Source: a virus. Taken from it: 36,010 nt of DNA. The DNA lies in the UHGV virus genome UHGV-0022223. The stretch is one strand, 5' to 3'. Within the stretch, counting starts at the first letter, position 1; each line of letters starts with the position of its first letter. This document shows, in pieces, positions 4,198 through 32,972 of the stretch. A program made the position numbers and the translations under genes. The notes beneath the pieces are model-generated. The model was not told the origin of the DNA and searched no databases. It worked only from the letters and a program-made list of their open reading frames with translations.

Positions 4198-5502
4198 TTA
4201 TTGACGATTAAAGTAGTTAGAGTTTAGCTCTTTAGGGAAGTAGTGTTTACGATTTACCCAAACAAATCCATCAACTTTTGATATCACAGCGACATCAACA
4301 GGCCCACCGACAGTTTCATAATCATGTGATACTTTTCTTTTGAATGCAGTGATGTTCACTAATGATTCGGCCATATACGCAAGATCTGCCTTCCCAAGTG
4401 ATTGCAACATCGATATCATTTTATTTGTATGGTTATTAACAATATAGCTTTCAAGTTTAGTATCGTGATCTTGTAAAAGTACGTTTTTGAGTTCCTCAAT
4501 TTCACTGGAGAAGTGATTGGCTAGTACTCCATTGTTCATTGCAGGGAAAATATTGCTAGAAACATAATGATTAAGCCGATCAAAAACTTCCTCTGTAAGA
4601 GTTCTGTTAAAATTAATGATGTTAGGGTTGCACCCATCAATGAAAGTTACTACTTCATCTTCTTGAGCAAATGGTATAACAAACCCCATATTGGTTACCT
4701 CATTATGGGATTTCTCATCAATATTATGGATCATCAATTTGTTTTTAAAAATGCCGTAGATATGAAGAGTGCAAATGGAAGGGTAATATTCTTCCTCTCC
4801 ATAACCTGTTATAACAATCCCTGAATATGTACGACTAGCATGGACTTTGAAAATTAAACAAGTGGAATATAATATGACTTTTTCCATAAGCTCTTGCTGT
4901 ATATTTTCACAGTTATCAAGAACAATAATTGATGAAATGTATGGCGATATTAAATCTTGTATATATGCTAAAGCATCATTAAACTCTTCTGTATCAAACC
5001 CTTCGAAAAAGAGATTATTCCTTAAGATTCCTATCTCTAAATCAAAGGCTTGCTTAACTATGTTTTGAAAAATAACATTGTCGAGTTCAACGGCGGGGTT
5101 CATTGTTAAATAGTTTACTACATTATTATCATTAATGTATCTCATCAAACCTTTGAGGTTATCAACAACAAGGTTTATAACGCAAGCCTCTCTCATTTCA
5201 TTTGTTATAAGGTCTGAGTTACCATTGATGAATTTTACAAAGTCATTAACATATTCTTTAATGGTAGGGAAACTAGTTTTCCCCAATTGTTTTCTATAGG
5301 ATTTAATTATAAGTTCCCACGGTGCGCCACCCAGTGTCGCATTATTATAAATCATGATCCCCACGGGATGGTGTTTAGATAGTTCGAATAGTTTTTCCGC
5401 ACTATTATTTATTTTTACTAATCTATTATGCTCTGTGGTGACTGCAGAGTCAGCAGCAAGGGCGATTCCAGTATTATTTATTACAACAATCTCAGCTGTC
5501 AT
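4198..5502 (-). CDS. 434-aa protein with proteasome-beta/HslV-like Ntn-hydrolase sequence blocks and a large internal insertion; AT-rich moron
   Basis: Long ORF in strongly AT-rich DNA. Starts MTAEIVVINNTGIALAADSAVT...KLF (Thr after Met, Asp about 16 residues later, Lys before LF), has a TGYGEEE block, and ends GGPVDVAVISKVDGFV, which closely resembles the proteasome beta C-terminal strand recalled from memory. Confidence 0.8.
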   Translation of the reverse strand: MTAEIVVINNTGIALAADSAVTTEHNRLVKINNSAEKLFELSKHHPVGIMIYNNATLGGAPWELIIKSYRKQLGKTSFPTIKEYVNDFVKFINGNSDLITNEMREACVINLVVDNLKGLMRYINDNNVVNYLTMNPAVELDNVIFQNIVKQAFDLEIGILRNNLFFEGFDTEEFNDALAYIQDLISPYISSIIVLDNCENIQQELMEKVILYSTCLIFKVHASRTYSGIVITGYGEEEYYPSICTLHIYGIFKNKLMIHNIDEKSHNEVTNMGFVIPFAQEDEVVTFIDGCNPNIINFNRTLTEEVFDRLNHYVSSNIFPAMNNGVLANHFSSEIEELKNVLLQDHDTKLESYIVNNHTNKMISMLQSLGKADLAYMAESLVNITAFKRKVSHDYETVGGPVDVAVISKVDGFVWVNRKHYFPKELNSNYFNRQ

Positions 5503-5641: not shown

Positions 5642-6028
5642 TCAGTCCCCCTGCGAGCGAATCCGCCCCTTCATGTACTTCTCATACAGCTCATCCAGTT
5701 CCTTAAGACGTATCGAAAAGATGCGGAGCATGTTCTGTTGCTCTTCTTCTGGCAGCTGGCGGTAGAGCTCAAGCAGGCGCTGTTCGTCCGGCTTAAGTCC
5801 GTCCTTCTCGCCGACATCCTCACCGAGTAACCAAGGCACAGACACGCCAGCTGCGTCAGCGACAGCGAGAGCTGATTTCTTGCTGATCACGCCTTTTTTA
5901 AACCAGCCGTTCACAGACTGCGGGGTTACCCCAGCAACCCTGGCCATATCGGATTTGGTCATACCGCGCCCGTTCAGCTCTGAAAGGCGTTCGACAAGTA
6001 TCGGATTAAGTACGGTTTTCTCTTTCAT
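5642..6028 (-). CDS. Prophage repressor, HTH XRE family, DicA/RacR-like (no S24 peptidase domain)
   Basis: 128 aa; N-terminal HTH (MTKSDMARVAGVTPQSVNGWF) and a C-terminal LLELYRQLPEEEQ segment resembling DicA from memory; divergent from a Cro-like gene with operators between them. Confidence 0.75.
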   Translation of the reverse strand: MKEKTVLNPILVERLSELNGRGMTKSDMARVAGVTPQSVNGWFKKGVISKKSALAVADAAGVSVPWLLGEDVGEKDGLKPDEQRLLELYRQLPEEEQQNMLRIFSIRLKELDELYEKYMKGRIRSQGD

Positions 6029-6986: not shown

Positions 6987-7895
6987 ATGTCAAACACCGC
7001 TGAAATAATCAATTTCCCAAATAAAACCGAACAACCGGGAGGTCGTATGGCCGACCTGTCGAACGGGTATACCAAGGTCGCTAACGAGATCCAACAGCTT
7101 AAGCCTCGCCTGAGACTGTCAGGCCGGGAATGGCAATGTTTTGAGGCGGTGATCTGGCTTACCTACGGCTGGAACAAGAAACAGGACCGCGTGACAAATA
7201 CGGTTATTGCCGAGCTTACGGGCCTGAGCGATACGCATGTATCGGACGCGCTTAAGTCTCTCGCAGAACGCAAAATCATCTTTTCACAGAAGCAGGGCAT
7301 GATGAAAATCGTCGGTGTAAACACTGACCTTTCAGCATGGATTTTAGACAAACCGGAAACGGGAAGAAAATTCCCGAAAACAGGAAAATCCTTCCCGAAA
7401 TCAGGAATAACCTTCCCGAAAACGGTAGACACCCAATACAAGAACAAGAACAGTATTAAAAGATCTTCGTCCGAGAATTCTGACGAATCCTCTGACGCAC
7501 GTCTGAAGAAATTTTTATCAACTCATCCTGAAGCTGCGGTCTACACACCATCCGGTGCGAAGTGGGGCTCTGCTGAAGACCTCGAGACAGCTAAGTGGAT
7601 TTCCTCCAGGGTGAAGCTGATTAACCCAACCTGCAAAGCCCCGGACATGACCTCCTGGTCTAACACTGTTCGCCTGATGCGCCAGATAGACGACCGGTCG
7701 CACCAGGACATCTGCGCGCTGTATGACTGGGCTAGCAAACACCACTTCTGGCAGACCAACATCCTGAGTCCCGAAAGCCTGCGTAAGCAGTGGGACAAGC
7801 TGACAATGCAGCGTAACGCCGGAGGTGAGCAGCGCGCTGTCAAGCCAGATCTGGACTTCAACAACACTGACTGGGCCTATGGGGTGATCCGATGA
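6987..7895 (+). CDS. O: Replication initiator, lambda O-like
   Basis: Start at internal ATG (MSNTAEIINFP...) with RBS GGAGAA; N-terminus and RMADLSNGY resemble lambda O from memory; iterons inside the gene; stop overlaps the P start. Confidence 0.75.
   Translation: MSNTAEIINFPNKTEQPGGRMADLSNGYTKVANEIQQLKPRLRLSGREWQCFEAVIWLTYGWNKKQDRVTNTVIAELTGLSDTHVSDALKSLAERKIIFSQKQGMMKIVGVNTDLSAWILDKPETGRKFPKTGKSFPKSGITFPKTVDTQYKNKNSIKRSSSENSDESSDARLKKFLSTHPEAAVYTPSGAKWGSAEDLETAKWISSRVKLINPTCKAPDMTSWSNTVRLMRQIDDRSHQDICALYDWASKHHFWQTNILSPESLRKQWDKLTMQRNAGGEQRAVKPDLDFNNTDWAYGVIR
7353..7432 (+). repeat. Origin iterons inside the O gene (about four direct repeats) followed by an AT-rich stretch
   Basis: CCGGAAACGGGAAGAA, TTCCCGAAAACAGGAAAA, TTCCCGAAATCAGGAATA, TTCCCGAAAACGGTAGAC; each encodes part of the FPKTGK-like peptide repeat. 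Confidence 0.7.
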
Positions 7896-8581
7896 AATCT
7901 CTTGCAGAGCAGATGCGTAACCACGACCGCGAGCAGATGAGCCGCATGGCCCATAACCTGCCAGAGCAGTACCAGGAGTGCGCGCCGGTCGAGCAGGTGG
8001 CGCAGGTATTCAACAAGCTGTTCAACGAGCTGCGCGCCGCGTTCCCGGCCAGCATGGCGAACTTCCGCACCCAGGAAGACCTGAACGAATTCCGCCGTCA
8101 GTGGCTGCTGGCGTTTCAGGAGAACGGGATCCACACCATGGCTCAGGTCGATGCCGGCATGCGCATTGCCCGCCGCCAGGAGCGCCCATTCCTGCCGTCG
8201 CCGGGCCAGTTCGTCGCCTGGTGCAAGCAGAGCGGCGGCGCGCTGGGCGTCAACGTTGACCAGGTGATCGCCGAATACTGGGACTGGCGTAACCGCTCGT
8301 TCGAATTCATCTCCAGCGAGCAATTTCCATGGTCGCAGCCGGTCATGTACCACATTTGCGTAGAATTGCGCCACCGCAGCACCGAGCGCCAGTTAACGCA
8401 TGGTGAACTGGCACGCGAGGCAGGCGATCTGCTGGACATGTGGGAAAGGCGCGTCACCGAGGGTAAGCCAGTGCCGCCGGTACGCCGGGCTATTGCCGCA
8501 CCAGCTGCCGAGCAAGGGCCGACGCCGATCCAGCTGCTGCTGGCCAAGTACAACCGCAACAAGTCGAACGGGATGGTGTGA
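7892..8581 (+). CDS. P: Replication protein P-like helicase loader
   Basis: 229 aa with long matches to lambda P recalled from memory (DREQM, MPEQY, FPAS, RQW, ENGI, RPFLPSPGQFVAWC); ATGA overlap with O. Confidence 0.85.
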   Translation: MKSLAEQMRNHDREQMSRMAHNLPEQYQECAPVEQVAQVFNKLFNELRAAFPASMANFRTQEDLNEFRRQWLLAFQENGIHTMAQVDAGMRIARRQERPFLPSPGQFVAWCKQSGGALGVNVDQVIAEYWDWRNRSFEFISSEQFPWSQPVMYHICVELRHRSTERQLTHGELAREAGDLLDMWERRVTEGKPVPPVRRAIAAPAAEQGPTPIQLLLAKYNRNKSNGMV

Positions 8582-8582
8582 C

Positions 8583-8822
8583 ATGAACATAACAATCCGT
8601 GAGCAGGTGCTGGCAGCCCTGCGCAACAACCCAGGGTTGAACAACGCCAAACTGGCAGGGCTTCCCGGAGTGGTACATCATCGATCAGGACTATCGGGGG
8701 CAGAAGTACGCGAAGGACAAGCAGGTTGCGCGTTGTGGCAACGCAGTTCCGCCGCCATTCGCCGAGGCACTGGTGAGGGCTAATTTACCGGAGCTTTGTC
8801 AGCAGAAAGAGATCGCAGCTTA
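8583..8822 (+). pseudogene. Degraded gene: 28-codon N-terminal frame joined out of frame to a DNA methyltransferase C-terminal fragment
   Basis: ATG at 8583 runs into a frame change; from about 8602 a second frame encodes ...CGNAVPPPFAEALVRANLPELCQQKEIAA, resembling the C-terminal motif of DNA methyltransferases; no upstream catalytic motifs. Confidence 0.35.
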
Positions 8823-8922
8823 ATGTCCGAGTTTCAGAACATGGTGTAACAAATCCTGCTACTTCAATGACGTAGATTCAAACCTGATATAATTAGGCTC
8901 TTCACAACACGAGGAGCCTAAA

Positions 8923-9159
8923 ATGCACCATTACATGATCCCTATCAACGGAACTGTTCACCTGATCAAGACTGACTCTCTAATCCCTGAAGGGACTGAG
9001 TATAGCTTTGAAGGAGAAAGTCTAATCTGCGCTCATGCCACTTTTAAATCTGGGACGTATGGCTTCCTGATACCAAAGGGAAATCAGTTGAATAGAGAGC
9101 ATGCGTTCTGGCATGTAAGTGGAATTCACCCTAATCCCCTGGGAATGGATAAATCGTAA
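8923..9159 (+). CDS. Hypothetical 78-aa protein in AT-rich insert
   Basis: RBS GAGGAG before the ATG; perfect TATAAT at 8887-8892 upstream; lower GC than flanks. Confidence 0.5.
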   Translation: MHHYMIPINGTVHLIKTDSLIPEGTEYSFEGESLICAHATFKSGTYGFLIPKGNQLNREHAFWHVSGIHPNPLGMDKS

Positions 9160-11784: not shown

Positions 11785-12567
11785 ATGAACCTTGAAAACA
11801 CAGTGAAATACCACTTCGCTAAATCCACACTGATTAGCGATTCTCCGCGCGCTACCGCCTCCGATTCACTGACCGGTACCGACATAATGGCTGCCATGGG
11901 CATGACGCAGGAACGCGCCGCAATGGGTTACAGCGCCTTCCTCGGCAAGATGGGCATAAGCAATAACGACCGGGATCGGGCGATCGGTCTGCTGGCTGAG
12001 TACGCGATGACAAAATGCGACAAGGTTGCCGCACTGCGTAAGCTCGGTGCCGCGGTTAAACCTCAGGTGATTCACCAGTTGGCCACCTTCGCTTTTGAGG
12101 ACTATTCCCGCAGCGCTGCCAGCGTGAAGCAGTGCGATTGTTGTGACGGTCAGGGCTTCATTGAGGCTGACGTGTTTACCAATAAATTCCGTAAGCCAGA
12201 AGGGAAAATGACCGTGTCCGGGATGGTGAAGGTCAAAGAATCCATCAAAGTGCTATGCAAAAAGTGTAATGGCTCTGGTGTGGTTAGTGCTTCTTGCAGT
12301 GATTGCCATGGGCGCGGCAAGGCAGTGAACCAGGCTCTTACTGAGAAACAGGGCGTTCCTGTTCTGGCTGACTGTAAGCGCTGCGGAGGGCGTGGGTATG
12401 AACGACTTCCGTCGACTGAAGCCTATGCTGCTGTATGCCAGATTACTGACGCCATTAGCCTGGACACCTGGAAAAAGTCTGTTAAGCCATTCTACGACCT
12501 GCTGATCACGAAATTTGATATCGAAGAGTCCTGGGCCGAAAAACAGCTTAAGCAGATAACGCGGTAA
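11785..12567 (+). CDS. Q: Late-gene antiterminator Q family
   Basis: 260 aa with paired CxxC zinc-finger motifs; last regulatory gene before the late promoter and terminator region and the lysis genes; RBS GGAGAAG. Confidence 0.65.
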   Translation: MNLENTVKYHFAKSTLISDSPRATASDSLTGTDIMAAMGMTQERAAMGYSAFLGKMGISNNDRDRAIGLLAEYAMTKCDKVAALRKLGAAVKPQVIHQLATFAFEDYSRSAASVKQCDCCDGQGFIEADVFTNKFRKPEGKMTVSGMVKVKESIKVLCKKCNGSGVVSASCSDCHGRGKAVNQALTEKQGVPVLADCKRCGGRGYERLPSTEAYAAVCQITDAISLDTWKKSVKPFYDLLITKFDIEESWAEKQLKQITR

Positions 12568-12666
12568 CGCCTATAGCGATAGCCTATGATTTTGTCTTGG
12601 GCTATTTACTTTTCCCGAATCTGTGTTAATTTTGTCCCAACGATGGGTTAATGCCTTCGTTTCAAG

Positions 12667-12696
12667 CCCTGCGGATAACACCGTGGGGTTTTTTGC
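12667..12696 (+). terminator. tR'-like terminator of the short late leader transcript
   Basis: CCCUGCGG-auaaca-CCGUGGGG (two G-U pairs) followed by U6, about 100 bp downstream of Q. Confidence 0.5.
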
Positions 12697-12778
12697 GTTT
12701 CTGGATACTGATATGCCAAGAAGAGTGGTAATCAGGTAGTATTCATTCAATAAGTAGGATGCAGAAGGTAATAGCATT

Positions 12779-13348
12779 ATGGAAAATATTACTGGCGAAT
12801 ACTTTTTGGATGCTGACGACGAGCTTGTCGATTACCTTGAAAAGCAGGGTGAAGAATGCATCAAAGAGGCTTACCACTCGAACACTGTCAATATTGAGAA
12901 TGGCTATAAGCTGCTCAATATTCAGATCGTCGGTATTGGCTCTTCGTTTTTACTCCTTACTCAAAAAACGAACTGGGACTACCTTGCTGTTGGTATCGCT
13001 GCATTTACTTTCTTGTGGACATGGTGCGCAATATATCTTGTCCACTCAGGGTTGTCGGTTAATGTCAGGGCGTTGATTTCTGCACCGCCAGATAGTCTTT
13101 ACACTAAGAGCTTTAAAAGTATCGATAGCGACGATCACCAGTGGTTTCGAGGAAATGGCTACACCGGGACTGAGAAGACCCTTCCCATTATCCGGCGTTA
13201 CCGCTTGGCTGATCTGTGTAAGACGTCAAAAGAGATGCTGGTATTAAACAAAAGAATTAGAACGCATCTTGATAGAGCAAGGATCATGACAATCCTTGCT
13301 CCGGTAGTGTCTATAATGGCATCAGCTATTGCTTTTTGTTATCTCTGA
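12779..13348 (+). CDS. Hypothetical membrane protein (AT-rich moron between Q and the lysis cassette)
   Basis: 189 aa with two central hydrophobic segments and a C-terminal hydrophobic anchor; lower GC than neighbours. Confidence 0.6.
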   Translation: MENITGEYFLDADDELVDYLEKQGEECIKEAYHSNTVNIENGYKLLNIQIVGIGSSFLLLTQKTNWDYLAVGIAAFTFLWTWCAIYLVHSGLSVNVRALISAPPDSLYTKSFKSIDSDDHQWFRGNGYTGTEKTLPIIRRYRLADLCKTSKEMLVLNKRIRTHLDRARIMTILAPVVSIMASAIAFCYL

Positions 13349-30059: not shown

Positions 30060-31124
30060 ATGTCTCTTAACTGGATGCGCCATTTTGAGCTGCAACTGTT
30101 GGACCAGAACGGGCAGGGCGTTTCCCTGTCTGACTTTAAGGTCACGTTCCAGATCGAGTGGGCAGACACACGCTGGCCGCGCGTGGCGAACGTGAAAATT
30201 TACAACCTTTCGACCGATACCACGAACAAGATACTGGGGCAGGAGTTTGCCAAAATTCGCATCATTGCCGGGTATGACGGTATAGCGCCGGATGTTGATG
30301 CGAGCCAGGTCGGCGTCGCCCGAGAGATTTCACCAGACCAGATAGGGCAGGTGAACGGTCAGAACTACGGCCTGATTTTTGACGGTGATATTCGCTTTAC
30401 CGTAACCGGGAAGGACAACATTACCGATTCCTGGGTGTTGATTCAGGCTATTGGAGATCATGAAGCGTTCCTCTACGCGACTACCATCACTACGCTTGCC
30501 GCTGGCTATACCGTTGCGGATCTGCACCGGGCGACGATGCAGGATTTCAACGTGTTCGGCGTGACACAGGGCATTACCGGCGATTTTCCTGATACCGTGT
30601 TTCCTCGTGGCCGCGCGATTTACTCATCCACTCGTAACGTGATGGATAATATTGCAGCGCAGTGCAAAGCGACATGGCAGCTGGTGGATGGTCAGGTCCA
30701 GATGGTGCCGGAGGATAAATATATTCACGAAGCCATTGTGTTGAATGCCAATACTGGCCTGATTGGTATGCCGCAACAGACGATGGGCGGCGGCGTAAAC
30801 GTGCGGTGCCTGATAAACCCAAACATCCGCATTAATGGTCTTATCCAGCTCGATCAGGCTTCGGTGTACCGCGCGTCGCTCGGTAATAGCGAAATCGCAC
30901 AGTCGCCCGGGCGTATCACCGAAACTGAAGAGAATGGCAACCGTGTGCTGACCGGTACGACGTCACAGGCTGCCAGCATTGCGACGGATGGCGTTTATAT
31001 CGTCAAAGCTATCGACTATACTGGCGACACCAGAGGTCAGGCGTGGTACATGGATTTGATGTGTTTTGCGCGTGGCAGTCGTGATTTAGTTAATGCTGGT
31101 GCTATGCAAAAAACAAACTACTGA
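30060..31124 (+). CDS. Baseplate hub-like protein (Mu gp44-like position)
   Basis: 354-aa ORF upstream of the spike gene. Confidence 0.45.
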   Translation: MSLNWMRHFELQLLDQNGQGVSLSDFKVTFQIEWADTRWPRVANVKIYNLSTDTTNKILGQEFAKIRIIAGYDGIAPDVDASQVGVAREISPDQIGQVNGQNYGLIFDGDIRFTVTGKDNITDSWVLIQAIGDHEAFLYATTITTLAAGYTVADLHRATMQDFNVFGVTQGITGDFPDTVFPRGRAIYSSTRNVMDNIAAQCKATWQLVDGQVQMVPEDKYIHEAIVLNANTGLIGMPQQTMGGGVNVRCLINPNIRINGLIQLDQASVYRASLGNSEIAQSPGRITETEENGNRVLTGTTSQAASIATDGVYIVKAIDYTGDTRGQAWYMDLMCFARGSRDLVNAGAMQKTNY

Positions 31125-31134
31125 GGTACGGGAC

Positions 31135-31470
31135 GTGAAACTCGTAATTTTTATCATTGCAGCATTATTTTCTTTCCAAGCTATTGCTGATTCTCAGTGT
31201 GGTGATTTCAAAATCCATTGGGCTGATGATGGTTTCGCTCGCGTAAACGGAGCTAAACCTGAATCGCAAAAAGTGACATTTCTTAAAAATGACGGTGATT
31301 ATAACAACGTCAAAATTGAATGGCGCTTAGCGACCAATCAACCAGGGCGATGGGTAGGAATGGAGTTTATTGGCCGTAATGGTAAAGCAATCCTGAATGC
31401 TCAGTGGCTGCAAGCCAGCATGGATTCGCCGCGTCAGTACGCAACATACGACTGCCGAAAAGTAAAATAG
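31135..31470 (+). CDS. Small secreted protein (signal peptide, two Cys), AT-rich moron
   Basis: GTG at 31135 after GAGG; KLVIFIIAALFSFQAIA then DSQ looks like a cleavable signal peptide; AT-rich; a terminator follows. Confidence 0.5.
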   Translation: MKLVIFIIAALFSFQAIADSQCGDFKIHWADDGFARVNGAKPESQKVTFLKNDGDYNNVKIEWRLATNQPGRWVGMEFIGRNGKAILNAQWLQASMDSPRQYATYDCRKVK

Positions 31471-31471
31471 C

Positions 31472-31490
31472 CCGCCAGATAGGCGGGCAT
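31472..31490. terminator. Hairpin between convergent moron genes
   Basis: CCCGCC-agata-GGCGGGC sits between the stop codons of the two moron genes; no clear U tract. Confidence 0.4.
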
Positions 31491-31493
31491 GCG

Positions 31494-31784
31494 TCAAAAA
31501 TATTGAGCTTTAATTATAATAAACACAATAATTACGAACAGGATGTTTCTAATTATTTTTTGCTTATGAGTAAGTTGTTTTTTTTCTGTCGATTTCCCGG
31601 GAGAGTAAAGGTTAGTGGTATGCGACAGCCCCGTGCCGGGAAGGCCATTTGTCATCTTTACGCCTTTTTTTCCGATGTTAATGGTGGAACCTTTACCACC
31701 AATTGAAGTGCTTACTCCGCTTTTACTAATGTTGATCGCGAGTCCGGGCGCAATCCGGATTCTTTTACGAAATCTAAATCCCAT
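31494..31784 (-). CDS. Membrane-anchored protein, N-terminus reminiscent of DUF4236-type proteins (MGFRFRKRIRIAPG...), AT-rich moron
   Basis: 96-aa ORF with strong RBS AGGAG; Gly/Lys-rich region then C-terminal hydrophobic anchor FVIIVFIII; AT-rich. Confidence 0.55.
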   Translation of the reverse strand: MGFRFRKRIRIAPGLAINISKSGVSTSIGGKGSTINIGKKGVKMTNGLPGTGLSHTTNLYSPGKSTEKKQLTHKQKIIRNILFVIIVFIIIKAQYF

Positions 31785-31972
31785 TTGTTACTCCTGTAGT
31801 CAATAATGCGATGGTGCAGGTCCACTCTATGGCGGCTTCATGGCTGAAATTGATTTTCAATGCTTACTTGTTGCAAATATATCCTAATACACCTTGTGAA
31901 TGTGTGCCATTGCAGCGGAAAAGCCTTACTTCACACTGATGTAGCTTAGTTACTAAGAGATAATTGATACCA

Positions 31973-31996
31973 AACCAGCTTCGGCTGGTTTTTTTA
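31973..31996 (+). terminator. Rho-independent terminator upstream of the spike gene
   Basis: AACCAGC-ttcg-GCTGGTT followed by T7. Confidence 0.6.
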
Positions 31997-32006
31997 TGGG
32001 GGTTTT

Positions 32007-32747
32007 ATGCCAATTCCAACTCAATCACAGATCGGGGGTGAGCAGCAGACCGCGCAGGCCATTGCCGATTCGGTGTCTACCCAGATGCGCGTAGCGATGC
32101 CCGGCATCATTCAGTCGTTCGATCCTGACACTGTTACCTGCACAGTAGAGGTAGCGCTTCGCGGTATTGTTGGCGATGGCTCCACCGAATTAAAACCGCT
32201 GGTGGATGTGCCGGTTATCTTCCCGCGCGGCGGCGGTTGCACGCTGACCTTTCCGGTAAAAGAAGGCGACGAGTGCCTGCTGATCTTTGCCGACCGTTGC
32301 ATCGATTTCTGGTGGCAGAGCGGCGGCGTTCAGGAGACCGTCGATCCGCGACAGCATGACTTATCTGATGCGCTCGCCATCGTTGGCCCGCAGTCGCAAG
32401 CACAGAAAATCAGCGGTATCAGTACCAGCGCCGCGCAGCTGCGAACCGATGATGGTGCGGCGTTCGTAGAGGTTGCCGCAGGACATAACATCACCGTTCA
32501 AACACCGGGCCAGCTCACGGCTACGGCTGAAGGTGGAACGACAATCACATCCCCGACTATCACGCTGAACGGCAACGTAACGATTAATGGCAATCTGTCT
32601 CAGGGAATGGGCGAAAGTGGCGGTACTGCGACGATGCTTGGGCCGGTGACGGTGACTAACGATGTGAAGGCTGGAGGTAAGAGCCTCATCCAGCATACCC
32701 ATGGCGGTGTGCAGAATGGCAGCGGGAATACTACCGCGCCTAATTAA
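32007..32747 (+). CDS. Baseplate central spike protein (gpV / Mu gp45-like)
   Basis: 246 aa with a Gly/Thr-rich repetitive C-terminal region (TITSPTITLNGNVTINGN...HTHGG); position before the gp46/J/I-like genes. Confidence 0.6.
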   Translation: MPIPTQSQIGGEQQTAQAIADSVSTQMRVAMPGIIQSFDPDTVTCTVEVALRGIVGDGSTELKPLVDVPVIFPRGGGCTLTFPVKEGDECLLIFADRCIDFWWQSGGVQETVDPRQHDLSDALAIVGPQSQAQKISGISTSAAQLRTDDGAAFVEVAAGHNITVQTPGQLTATAEGGTTITSPTITLNGNVTINGNLSQGMGESGGTATMLGPVTVTNDVKAGGKSLIQHTHGGVQNGSGNTTAPN

Positions 32748-32800: not shown

Positions 32801-32873
32801 CTTTCTGCACCTTGAGGATAGCAAGGGAGAATATGTGATTAATTTTAGCAAACTGATACGGGAGTTGCGAGTC

Positions 32874-32972
32874 ATGGGCGAAAAACTACCCAACTGGAAA
32901 TTCTTCCTCATCTGGGCCGTGTTCTTTTTATTCGGTCTGTCAAGCGTTATTAGCGCTATACGCTGGTGGTGA
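32874..32972 (+). CDS. Small hydrophobic peptide (MGEKLPNWKFFLIWAVFFLFGLSSVISAIRWW)
   Basis: ATG at 32874 with RBS GGGAG 9 nt upstream (or GTG at 32835); stop lies 3 nt before the next gene; below the track cutoff. Confidence 0.35.
   Translation: MGEKLPNWKFFLIWAVFFLFGLSSVISAIRWW

Follow-up and report, generated by a model that had tools for sequence, protein, structure and literature searches.

Between the baseplate hub and baseplate spike genes of the phage genome UHGV-0022223 (36,010 nucleotides, analysed here over its whole length and referred to as the window) lie two small convergent genes, which raises the question of what genes of this kind do within a baseplate operon. The phage is a temperate myovirus with lambdoid regulation and a tail of the Salmonella phage SEN34 type (genus Brunovirus), and to judge by its sequence the island is probably an accessory-gene slot in the late operon of this E. 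coli prophage (Table 1). We refer to the plus-strand gene as geneA and to the minus-strand gene as geneB. The original prediction had described them as a moron pair, in which a small plus-strand protein with a signal peptide and a membrane-anchored, DUF4236-like minus-strand protein with a strong ribosome-binding site are separated by a hairpin and closed off by a terminator. Each of these elements was found in the interval from hub to spike, no more than a few bases away from its predicted position.

Table 1. Coordinates of the island, its flanking genes and associated features in the window.
Feature	Coordinates	Strand	Evidence or remark
Baseplate hub gene	30060..31124	+	phrog_196, E 3.5e-82; Pfam E217_GP41
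Island (probable accessory-gene slot)	31125-32006		Between hub and spike; GC 0.42 (0.421), flanks 0.53-0.58
geneA	31135..31470	+	GTG start, 111 aa; phrog_3443
Predicted Sec signal peptide of geneA	31135..31188	+	Cleavage after AIA, residue 18
geneB intrinsic terminator, left end of geneB cassette	31470..31488	-	Terminator scan
geneB cassette, antisense, self-contained	about 31471-31971	-	
geneB	31494..31784	-	96 aa; PF14020 (DUF4236)
geneB upstream region, presumed promoter location	31785..31971	-	Part of mobile cassette
Conserved intrinsic terminator, right slot border	31972..31998	+	Stem 31972-31991 and T-run to 31998; 15 nt before spike ATG at 32007
Baseplate spike gene, first after slot	32007..32747	+	Spike N-terminal domain, E 2.5e-41; Apex motif
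Q-like late antiterminator	11785..12567	+	phrog_127, E 1e-103

Within the structural half of the window no other patch is AT-rich, and the GC content of the island falls in the lowest 4% among equally long segments. Both genes had been predicted to differ in composition from the tail genes around them, and this is borne out by GC contents of 0.429 for geneA and 0.388 for geneB, compared with 0.529 for the hub and 0.575 for the spike. The two open reading frames are real genes and not chance occurrences, geneA because it has homologues in 89 clusters, two invariant cysteines (C22 and C107 in the family alignment), and pairwise dN/dS ratios of 0.06-0.2; at least 192 homologues of geneB were found. 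Open reading frames on the other strand that overlap either gene (for example 31404-31706 on the plus strand and 31327-31497 on the minus strand) recur only as shadows of the real genes and were discarded.

The geneA product begins with VKLVIFIIAALFSFQAIA, followed after the cleavage point by DSQCG, and inspection of this sequence reveals a basic n-region, a hydrophobic core, and an AxA cleavage motif, in agreement with the predicted signal peptide. The leader layout, VK-LVIFIIAALFSF-QAIA with cleavage before DS, likewise conforms on inspection to a Sec signal peptide. The same GTG start is annotated by RefSeq in E. coli WEM25, and an alternative ATG is located at 31093. Members of the family vary most in the signal peptide, their mature part being conserved, and in some alleles geneA is joined to a lipoprotein N-terminal domain that contains an LLSGC lipobox. 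The AlphaFold2 model (pLDDT 84) is all-beta, and geneA is predicted to encode the precursor of an exported, eight-stranded beta-barrel protein of about 93 amino acids. Searches with the geneA product returned nothing from Pfam or NCBIfam and no PADLOC match at E <= 1, and fold searches with both proteins gave generic beta-barrel or beta-sheet matches only (Z <= 7.1). From avidin/streptavidin and other small eight-stranded periplasmic barrels (MliC/PliC lysozyme inhibitors and T6SS immunity proteins such as BtaiB) geneA differs in that it has no family-level match to them and does not conserve the ligand-binding or inhibitory motifs, the scores being in the range of generic fold similarity. A role as a lysozyme inhibitor of the MliC/PliC type was set aside, as neither a family match nor a close structural match with inhibitory loops was found. 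The geneA profile also matched long repetitive proteins, which are Gram-positive MucBP or Flg_new surface proteins and were judged spurious.

Among 74 close relatives, which are viral contigs selected by their hub gene, geneA directly follows the hub in 71, and it does so at all 26 genome loci, across many Enterobacterales genera with hosts ranging from Pantoea to Yersinia. SEN34, GZ7, Omnitron, and other isolated phages that share this tail lineage have it too, and so geneA is not the sporadic insertion that the original prediction implied. Members of the family are restricted to this one phage lineage, where they always adjoin the hub, and in many alleles the start of geneA overlaps or abuts the hub stop codon. 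At four loci geneA is replaced by other exported proteins (a signal-peptide protein or a lipoprotein), and relatives with 33-37% hub identity do not have it, the hub and spike genes overlapping each other there (Providencia PSTCR3, Bordetella IFTN9). Because these more distant relatives have no slot, the slot is presumably not structural. The two genes had been predicted to be accessory, a view that conserved structural components of the virion would have contradicted; geneA is conserved, but its signal peptide, its replacement at four loci, and its absence from distant relatives are in accord with an accessory role.

The geneB product matches PF14020 over residues 3-55 (E 1.8e-20, 73.6 bits versus a cut-off of 27) and has a hydrophobic C-terminus, as anticipated for a membrane-anchored DUF4236-like protein, and AGGAG is positioned 6 nt before its ATG, consistent with a strong ribosome-binding site. 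DUF4236 was the only match in Pfam, and NCBIfam and the PADLOC models (at E <= 1) returned none. Thirteen columns of the domain are invariant across 46 small homologues, and the sequence of the C-terminal helix is not conserved among them. The AlphaFold2 model (pLDDT 82) has six strands and one helix (residues 73-95), and residues 1-72 contain 13 lysines and arginines versus a single aspartate or glutamate. The predicted product is an N-in, tail-anchored inner-membrane protein, in which a basic cytoplasmic DUF4236 beta-meander (residues 3-60) is followed by a transmembrane (TM) helix formed by residues 73-95. The cytoplasmic placement of DUF4236 is suggested by the existence of DUF4236-TM-SH3 and DUF4236-FtsK_gamma fusions. 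A literature search found nothing relevant on DUF4236 (PF14020), phrog_3443, or the RefSeq accessions.

Unlike geneA, geneB is sporadic. It is present in 22 of the 74 hub-selected relatives and absent from 70% of them, and 19 of 42 complete E. coli genomes that carry the hub have it. In 18 E. coli genomes the cassette and its upstream region share 98-99.8% DNA identity, whereas the hub genes share only 90-97%, and at loci where geneB is missing the homology to the window ends at 31466-31473. Its patchy presence, opposite strand, own terminator, and near-identical DNA across diverged backbones together suggest that geneB is a textbook moron in the Juhala/Hendrix sense, as morons are defined in PMC3594210. 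A deviating base composition and an own terminator are found in the island, and absence from close relatives applies to geneB, but to geneA only at long range. The description of a moron pair thus holds insofar as geneB is a classic moron and both genes are AT-rich and accessory, but the two did not arrive as one inserted pair, since geneB lies beside at least seven allele classes of geneA and, in Hafnia, beside an exported protein that is not geneA.

The genomic contexts of eight DUF4236-TM genes were looked up, and in this small sample six are in phage tail modules of unrelated prophages, in positions between hub and spike, gpK and gpI, TMP and gpM, or chaperone and TMP; one has restriction-modification, Abi_C, and HigBA genes as its neighbours in a defence island. 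The recurrence in tail modules could merely reflect permissive insertion sites.

The predicted hairpin between the two genes consists of seven G-C pairs (GCCCGCC-loop-GGCGGGC, followed by TATTTTACTT on the minus strand), and presumably terminates geneB because it scores as an intrinsic terminator on the minus strand only. A moron as defined above would also have its own promoter for expression from the repressed prophage; a scan for sigma-70 consensus sites found no minus-strand site upstream of geneB. Upstream of geneA the same scan gave a single 9/12 match, located within the coding sequence of the hub, and the site total was not above that of shuffled sequence. Neither in the window nor in two related loci with multiple geneA copies (L010 and L018) were promoter sites enriched over shuffled sequence, and no site recurred consistently before the geneA copies or geneB. 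A small RNA in this region was considered and rejected; all Rfam matches are sub-threshold, and the best of these (isrK, 31912-31994 on the plus strand, 23 bits versus a gathering threshold of 50) is largely driven by the terminator.

The terminator predicted to close the island does close it, but it is a lineage-wide feature of the backbone and not part of this particular insertion. In about 105 of 110 related loci an intrinsic terminator with compensatory stem changes occupies the same position, 15-24 nt ahead of the spike start codon, irrespective of which cargo precedes it, and the plus-strand terminator constitutes the conserved backbone border of a cargo hotspot. At its other end the slot starts with the last ~14 hub codons, which follow ...WYMDLMCFARGxRDL, are variable, and form part of the cassette. 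The minimal slot is 411-421 bp and contains geneA alone, with the terminator directly after it. The first gene of the slot nearly always encodes an exported protein, nearly always geneA, and is followed by cargo of 0 to about 2 kb that is highly diverse and is represented in this window by geneB on its antisense cassette with its own terminator. Elsewhere the cargo includes conflict genes (Doc/Phd, a HEPN-like protein, and the PADLOC candidate PDC-S42), together with further genes whose products we take, reading by eye, to be ClpP-like, bPH_2, and antirepressor-like proteins.

The hotspots of anti-phage systems described by Rousset et al. (2022, PMC9122126) in P2-like prophages and P4 satellites likewise occupy a fixed site between conserved phage genes and exchange diverse cargo, including toxin-antitoxin and candidate defence genes. 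The slot described here differs in belonging to another lineage and a baseplate operon, in being bounded by a conserved terminator, in having an exported protein first, and in carrying mostly small single genes. No description of this baseplate-operon hotspot was found in a literature search.

A terminator within a late operon may be tolerated because the phage has a Q-like antiterminator, encoded within a lambdoid gene order (CI/CII/O/P/NinB/Q/holin/endolysin), that would permit read-through. During lytic growth Q-modified RNA polymerase would pass the slot terminators such that the baseplate genes are expressed, geneA would be co-expressed with the hub, and geneB would be opposed by antisense transcription. 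In a lysogen, any transcript of the accessory genes would be stopped by the terminator before it reached the baseplate genes. The pre-spike terminator would then be a clean natural example of Q antitermination letting a late operon carry insulated accessory genes.

The geneA alleles have diverged deeply, with a median dS of 0.97 versus 0.235 for the hub genes on their backbones. Positive selection on geneA was rejected, as the dN/dS ratios given above are those of purifying selection and there is no gene-wide signal, and the diversity appears to consist of old alleles that have been shuffled. Multi-copy arrays of geneA are present in two genomes, with four copies in L010 (Pseudescherichia vulneris) and eight in L018 (Serratia aquatilis). 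The deep allele divergence on similar backbones, the arrays, and the confinement to one lineage point to a conflict type of evolution. We also considered that geneA might inhibit the lytic-transglycosylase domain of the tape measure, by analogy with Spackle, and rejected this as geneA covaries with neither the tape measure nor the spike; near-identical geneA alleles are found with tape-measure proteins of 43-99% identity and spikes of 70-95% identity.

What, then, might the two products do? We infer, at a probability somewhat short of an even chance, that the slot includes two genes whose products both guard the lysogen or the infected cell against other phages, at the step of envelope penetration and DNA entry. 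Of exclusion, lysogenic conversion, and toxicity, the three functions for which the genes had been proposed as candidates, exclusion seems to be the best supported by context. The site of action of the geneA product would be the periplasm, which an incoming phage enters with its hub, spike, and tape-measure tip, and that of the geneB product would be the inner membrane on its cytoplasmic side, as for HK97 gp15, P22 SieA, and T4 Imm. On the side of exclusion are the conflict-rich cargo of the slot, the export of geneA, the mobile cassette of geneB, and the occurrence of DUF4236-TM genes in tail modules. On the other side are that neither protein matches PADLOC models, that the fold matches are generic, that there is no convincing sigma-70 promoter for either gene, and that geneA shows no gene-wide positive selection.

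The small inner-membrane protein gp15 of HK97 excludes incoming phages in a manner that depends on their tails, according to the account of Cumby et al. (2012) given in PMC3594210. There are several likenesses, in that geneB is predicted to encode a small single-pass inner-membrane protein, is an AT-rich and self-contained element in a tail operon of a temperate phage with lambdoid regulation, and has one DUF4236-TM homologue positioned like gene 15, with the tail chaperone gene on one side and the tape-measure gene on the other. GeneB would also be expected to act similarly, by preventing the incoming tail from forming a channel or letting DNA enter. However, no sequence relation was found between the two, gp15 being YebO-like and geneB matching only DUF4236 in Pfam, and geneB differs further in its predicted C-terminal anchor and cytoplasmic beta domain of ~60 residues, in its antisense orientation here, and in that its function is a proposed one. 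The geneA product resembles T4 Spackle (Sp) in being a small phage protein (~10 kDa when mature) that is predicted to be exported by Sec to the periplasm, where an incoming tip arrives. Spackle is helical, whereas geneA is all-beta, and the T4 sp and imm genes are early whereas geneA is linked to the hub and apparently late. Spackle, Imm, P22 SieA, and TP-J34 Ltp are envelope exclusion proteins that target the tail tip or tape measure, and no homology of geneA to them was detected; Imm is reported to bind the tape-measure protein (bioRxiv 10.64898/2026.03.06.709160).

That geneA is coupled to the hub points to late lytic expression, and such timing is as compatible with a role in the cycle of the phage itself as with exclusion. 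In such a role geneA would provide a late periplasmic protein, made along with the baseplate, that masks receptors or cell debris and so keeps progeny from being wasted, as T5 Llp does, or that conditions the envelope for lysis or release. The overlapping or abutting hub and geneA codons imply translational coupling to a late gene, and the near-universal presence of geneA in the lineage, the lack of an evident separate promoter, and purifying selection all agree with this. We nevertheless regard it as unlikely, if deserving of some weight, because the gene is missing from the more distant relatives and supplanted at four loci by unrelated exported proteins, and because deep allelic diversity and four- and eight-copy arrays are hard to square with a housekeeping step. 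Moreover, receptor-masking genes such as llp and cor are normally linked to receptor-binding genes, whereas geneA adjoins the hub. A further alternative, and a very improbable one, is that geneA is a divergent ligand-binding barrel of the avidin family that sequesters biotin or a similar small molecule in the periplasm. Pfam Avidin (PF01382) is not matched at E <= 0.1, the similarity is local and limited to three strands (beta5-beta7, hhalign probability 42%), and geneA is about 35 residues shorter than avidins. Of the residues that we take to be the biotin contacts of avidin (Y33, W70, and W97), W70 has a conserved equivalent (W63), but the equivalent of W97 is variable (L, A, or V in many members) and the position of Y33 appears to be an invariant F, in a hand alignment of the N-terminal half that lies outside the hhalign match. 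The location between hub and spike and the conservation of geneA across the lineage could also be taken to mean that geneA and geneB encode structural or assembly components of the baseplate, which has almost no likelihood, as geneA has a signal peptide, two invariant cysteines, and in some alleles a lipoprotein-domain fusion, geneB is antisense and missing from most close relatives, the hub and spike overlap directly in more distant relatives, and both genes deviate in composition.

For geneB, a different explanation is that it encodes a small membrane toxin or abortive-infection effector, of a holin-like or type I toxin-like kind, that is restrained by antisense transcription, and not an entry blocker. 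Its ribosome-binding site is strong and its product small and anchored in the membrane by its tail, the gene converges with geneA such that plus-strand transcription to the terminator at 31972 is antisense to it, one homologue has Abi_C and HigBA beside it in the defence island, and the toxin-antitoxin genes Doc/Phd occupy the same slot in other phages. This is nonetheless a fairly improbable explanation, since no known toxin or defence model is matched, the conserved part is a soluble beta-meander of ~55 residues and not the membrane helix, and the fusion of the domain to SH3 or FtsK_gamma elsewhere suggests a binding or scaffolding module. One or both genes could instead be lysogenic-conversion factors with roles unrelated to phages, such as envelope stress or serum resistance or adhesion, like lambda Bor and Lom. 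The predicted envelope location of the products, the AT-rich genes, and the moron-like layout are compatible with this, and morons have diverse functions (PMC3594210). Here too the chance is slight, as geneA is limited to one phage lineage and always beside the hub, whereas a gene of general benefit to the host would be expected to spread to further phage types and sites, and as DUF4236-TM genes recur specifically in tail modules.

If the two products do exclude other phages at the envelope, phrog_3443 (geneA) and the small DUF4236-TM proteins (geneB) would join the short list of envelope superinfection-exclusion factors, and DUF4236, a domain without literature, would gain a testable role. 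The slot would be a previously undescribed cargo hotspot, situated in the baseplate operon of prophages whose lineage is widely distributed among Enterobacterales. Such genes would shape phage infection of lysogenic E. coli, Klebsiella, Salmonella, and Serratia, with a bearing on phage therapy and on the prediction of host range.

The class of the hub tail changes together with the allele class of geneA, across distant backbones. This covariation is inseparable from physical linkage, and recombination at the conserved hub motif may explain it equally well. A more specific and rather improbable form of the exclusion proposal is that the last ~14 hub residues and the variable N-terminal face of geneA constitute a cognate recognition pair. 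When the tip of an incoming phage with the same tail type reached the periplasm, the geneA product would bind its hub tail and so obstruct penetration or the delivery of DNA. Exchange of the hub-tail/geneA cassette as a single unit would let phages escape, prophages would stack orphan cassettes and thereby broaden the range of phages they exclude, and geneB would provide a second, independent layer at the inner membrane. If true, this would be a polymorphic, allele-specific exclusion system within a baseplate operon, following the logic of toxin-immunity orphan arrays. There are parallels to CdiA-CT/CdiI and Rhs orphan arrays, in that the 3' end of the hub gene is repeated before each of the four successive geneA copies of L010, and hub tail and geneA class travel together. 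The hub tail is presumably not a toxin domain because its variable segment is only about 14 residues long, and an orphan immunity array of the polymorphic-toxin type was rejected for geneA, as this segment contains no toxin domain. The arrays also differ from those systems in that the repeated hub fragments are the conserved part, and the eight geneA copies of L018 stand without hub fragments.

The interval between the baseplate hub and spike genes holds a plus-strand gene for a small exported protein directly after the hub (geneA) and, convergent with it, a minus-strand gene encoding a DUF4236 domain with a C-terminal membrane helix (DUF4236-TM; geneB). The GC contents of geneA and geneB are 0.429 and 0.388, compared with 0.529 for the hub and 0.575 for the spike; the island falls within the lowest 4% of windows of equal length, and no other AT-rich patch occurs in the window's structural half. 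The coordinates and GC values thus bear out every detail of the original prediction of an AT-rich gene pair with an intervening hairpin and a closing terminator.

Features of the hub–spike island, the phage and related loci (positions in the window unless another source is named)
Feature	Source or context	Position	Strand	Details
Baseplate hub gene		30060-31124		phrog_196 E 3.5e-82; Pfam E217_GP41
Hub–spike interval (island)		31125-32006		holds four features
geneA		31135-31470	+	GTG start 31135, stop 31470; 111 aa
Hairpin		31470-31488		seven G-C pairs
geneB		31494-31784	-	96 aa
Hairpin with T-run		31972-31998	+	15 nt ahead of spike ATG
Spike gene		32007-32747		spike N-terminal domain E 2.5e-41; Apex motif
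CI-like repressor	lambdoid set	5642-6028	-
CII-like protein, O, P, NinB	lambdoid set upstream of head genes
Q-like antiterminator	lambdoid set	11785-12567		phrog_127 E 1e-103
Holin and endolysin	lambdoid set upstream of head genes
Lipoprotein–geneA fusion	L068	5069-5959		similar in L005, L006, L019, L023, L051, L063 and others
DUF4236-TM	lambda-like Pseudomonas syringae prophage	gpK to gpI/J gap
DUF4236-TM	Leclercia	tape-measure to gpM gap	opposite
DUF4236-TM	siphovirus from metagenomes	tail chaperone to tape-measure gap
DUF4236-TM	defence island			with restriction-modification, Abi_C and HigBA genes
DUF4236-TM	adjoining IS21 element

The upstream part of the genome is a lambdoid regulatory and lysis gene set, followed by head genes and a contractile tail with an SLT-bearing tape-measure protein, Dit-like protein, Pam3-type plug, hub, spike, sheath-initiator, baseplate J and DUF2612. 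The same tail module and gene order are present in the isolated phages Citrobacter Omnitron, Salmonella SEN34 (Brunovirus), Yersinia YP3, Hafnia yong1, Klebsiella GZ7, Klebsiella ST405-OXA48phi1.2 and Escherichia vB_EcoM-689R2, and the hub gene occurs in 42 of 5,426 complete E. coli genomes.

A geneA profile recovered 26 genome loci, in all of which geneA directly follows the hub, with hub identities down to about 50% and hosts in Yersinia, Rahnella, Escherichia, Pseudescherichia, Pantoea, Kosakonia, Serratia, Trabulsiella, Enterobacter, Phytobacter, Rosenbergiella and Izhakiella. Because these loci were chosen on geneA, a second sample was chosen on the hub (74 complete IMG/VR loci, hub identity 83-100%); geneA is at the same place in 71, and the other three have a 241-aa lipoprotein there. 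At this position Hafnia phage yong1 encodes a 158-aa protein with a signal peptide. The smallest hub–spike slots (411-421 bp) contain geneA only, and in many alleles the hub stop and the geneA start overlap or adjoin (gaps from -3 to +5), implying co-expression with the late baseplate genes. GeneA is not a sporadic insertion. It is also not a baseplate part: in Providencia PSTCR3 and Bordetella IFTN9 (hub identity 33-37%) hub and spike overlap with no gene between them, which identifies geneA as a lineage-specific addition. Phage GZ7 (L115, OP114732) encodes at about 4566-4898 a 110-aa signal-peptide-bearing homologue that the GenBank record leaves unannotated; its gene overlaps the hub stop codon.

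The N-terminus of geneA, VK-LVIFIIAALFSF-QAIA followed directly by DSQCG, reads on inspection as a canonical Sec signal peptide. Among 38 homologues, variability peaks in the leader and the mature protein is well conserved; variable positions cluster in the leader and at residues 24-31, 52-54 and 60-66, and C22 and C107, in the first and last predicted strands, are invariant. In one allele class the geneA domain forms the C-terminus of a lipoprotein of about 290-296 aa with lipobox LLSGC, again pointing to the periplasm. The lipobox cysteine reads glycine in L067, L069 and L077, and the L005 copy is annotated in RefSeq as a partial pseudogene. At 90% identity the family falls into 89 clusters, exclusively from Enterobacterales; of 1.84 billion representatives just 63 match the profile at E <= 0.001, several of them spurious repeat proteins.

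GeneA alleles are 57-99% identical on backbones whose hubs are 95-98% identical, and their median synonymous divergence is 0.97 compared with 0.235 for the hub, with dN/dS of 0.06-0.2, like hub and spike. The alleles are old and functional and have been shuffled by recombination, rather than evolving fast under positive selection. The last ~14 hub residues, after a conserved WYMDLMCFARG, co-vary with geneA allele class even across very distant backbones. Two loci carry arrays. A Pseudescherichia vulneris contig (L010, 330-2850) has four tandem ~624-bp units, each pairing a hub 3' fragment of roughly 260 nt with a copy of geneA. Among themselves the fragments show 70-96% identity, the geneA copies have diverged much further, and one copy is truncated. 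The Serratia aquatilis chromosome (L018, 4981-9869) has eight geneA paralogues, one frameshifted, in a 5-kb slot; this array is broken by an insertion sequence (402-aa transposase gene, 7848-9056) and closed by a single terminator. These patterns resemble the orphan cassettes of polymorphic toxin systems, although the variable stretch of the hub is much too small to form a toxin domain, and linkage alone can explain the co-variation. We regard it as unlikely that hub tail and geneA form a cognate specificity pair, with orphan cassettes stacked in the arrays.

GeneB residues 3-55 match DUF4236 (73.6 bits), and an AlphaFold2 model (pLDDT 82) shows a six-stranded beta-meander (6-60) joined through a linker to a C-terminal helix (73-95); the N-terminal 72 residues contain 13 K+R and 1 D+E. 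Homology to loci lacking geneB stops at 31466-31473 and picks up again at 31969-31989, defining a mobile cassette of about 31471-31971 that includes its own minus-strand terminator. Of the 74 hub-selected loci, 22 carry the cassette, in every case antisense, and it adjoins at least seven geneA allele classes. It also occurs in 19 of the 42 hub-carrying E. coli genomes, with DNA identity of 98-99.8% in most and no second site elsewhere in those genomes. At 50-68% identity, more divergent DUF4236-TM genes fill this site, likewise antisense, in prophages of Klebsiella, Hafnia, Pluralibacter and Serratia and in phage GZ7. Six of eight DUF4236-TM contexts looked up are phage tail modules. On a metagenome contig (L140, 5001-6961), two genes without known function (404 aa and 146 aa) lie downstream of a DUF4236-TM gene in the same orientation. 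The island around them also contains RhuM, a ResIII/restriction endonuclease, Abi_C and a HigB/HigA-like pair, and DUF4236 may be the centre of a multi-gene system here.

The cargo between geneA and spike in related loci is very diverse, occupies between 0 and about 2 kb, or 5 kb for the L018 array, and includes Doc/Phd toxin-antitoxin, HEPN-like, bPH_2 membrane, ClpP-like protease, and Mu F-like and OB-fold membrane proteins, several small secreted proteins, antirepressor-like genes (called by eye from sequence) and many proteins without family. At least one occupant is already a flagged defence candidate, as a 289-aa protein (Pfam DUF7946) in a Pantoea ananatis prophage slot (L026, 6415-7284) matches PADLOC candidate PDC-S42 (E 1.7e-36). 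Irrespective of cargo, about 105 of 110 loci have a strong intrinsic terminator 15-24 nt ahead of the spike ATG, directly 3' of geneA in minimal loci, and its stems differ in sequence with pairing kept (AACCAGC/GCTGGTT, ACCCGCC/GGCGGGT, AAGCCGC/GCGGCTT, AGGTCGC/GCGGCCT). As there is no promoter space between terminator and spike, we infer that the spike and downstream baseplate genes are transcribed through it; with a Q-like antiterminator present, this is the classical lambdoid arrangement, in which terminator-bounded accessory units are tolerated in the late operon. An imperfect palindrome, CTGACATTTGATCAG, is conserved immediately 5' of the terminator, about 15-30 nt upstream, in loci that differ in both cargo and genus (L009, L012, L013, L021, L051, L079, L083, L105, L118 and others), with no clear copy in the window; it could be an operator, second hairpin or recombination site. 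A weak match to Rfam isrK, an Hfq-binding prophage sRNA, runs over 31912-31994 (plus strand) up to the slot terminator; it scores 23.4 bits (gathering score 50; E 0.015) and probably reflects the terminator alone, although an sRNA-like transcript may have its 3' end there.

The slot is of the known moron and hotspot kind, with P2/P4 hotspots the closest precedent for the whole and HK97 gene 15 for geneB (PMC3594210, which also defines morons). The literature searched yielded no description of a hub–spike hotspot and no described function for geneA or the DUF4236 family, its one DUF4236 mention being unrelated. In a lysogen the terminator would insulate the baseplate genes from any geneA or cargo transcription, and in lytic growth Q-modified polymerase would cross the slot, expressing geneA together with the hub and running antisense to geneB.

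Beyond the anatomy, evolutionary pattern, export signals and topology indicators, which are direct observations, the reading we favour, plausible if somewhat short of probable, is that geneA and geneB give envelope-level protection against other phages. GeneA would act in the periplasm, where an incoming phage's hub, spike and tape-measure tip arrive. GeneB would work on the cytoplasmic side of the inner membrane in the manner of HK97 gp15, P22 SieA or T4 Imm, the last reported to bind tape-measure protein (bioRxiv 10.64898/2026.03.06.709160). Such protection is supported by the exclusive and tight tie of geneA to one tail lineage, by its allelic shuffling and arrays, typical of conflict genes, and by the recurrence of DUF4236-TM in tail modules and a defence island, other slot cargo being rich in conflict genes. 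Counting against it, neither gene matches known defence families in PADLOC or has a clear promoter by scan, and the coupling of geneA to a late gene fits a role in the phage's own lytic cycle equally well. GeneB may instead be a toxin or abortive-infection protein, or the genes may serve host-fitness conversion; a structural role was also weighed and is very unlikely. A further alternative, that geneA is an avidin-like ligand binder, derives from local similarity to avidin strands beta5-beta7 in a profile search of PDB sequences and hhalign (E 0.0014-0.5, probability 42%), but there is no Pfam Avidin match and the biotin-contact positions are not kept; we do not accept family membership and take the similarity as a fold lead only.

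The window has other candidate accessory genes. A strongly AT-rich 434-aa gene (4198-5502, minus strand; GC about 0.32-0.35) adjoins the CI-like repressor and matches phrog_5990, with no match in Pfam or PADLOC; its location and base composition hint at an accessory or defence function expressed from the prophage. The region downstream of Q is a classical moron site in lambdoid phages, and an AT-rich stretch directly 3' of the Q-like antiterminator (12450-13348, plus strand) contains a 189-aa ORF (12779-13348; phrog_11870) without Pfam or PADLOC match. In the 228-bp gap between spike and sheath-initiator (GC 0.45), a 45-aa ORF with one hydrophobic helix (32835-32972, plus strand; phrog_6632, E 3.3e-21), found in few relatives only (L011; SEN34 gene 23), looks like a second small membrane-protein moron of the baseplate operon.
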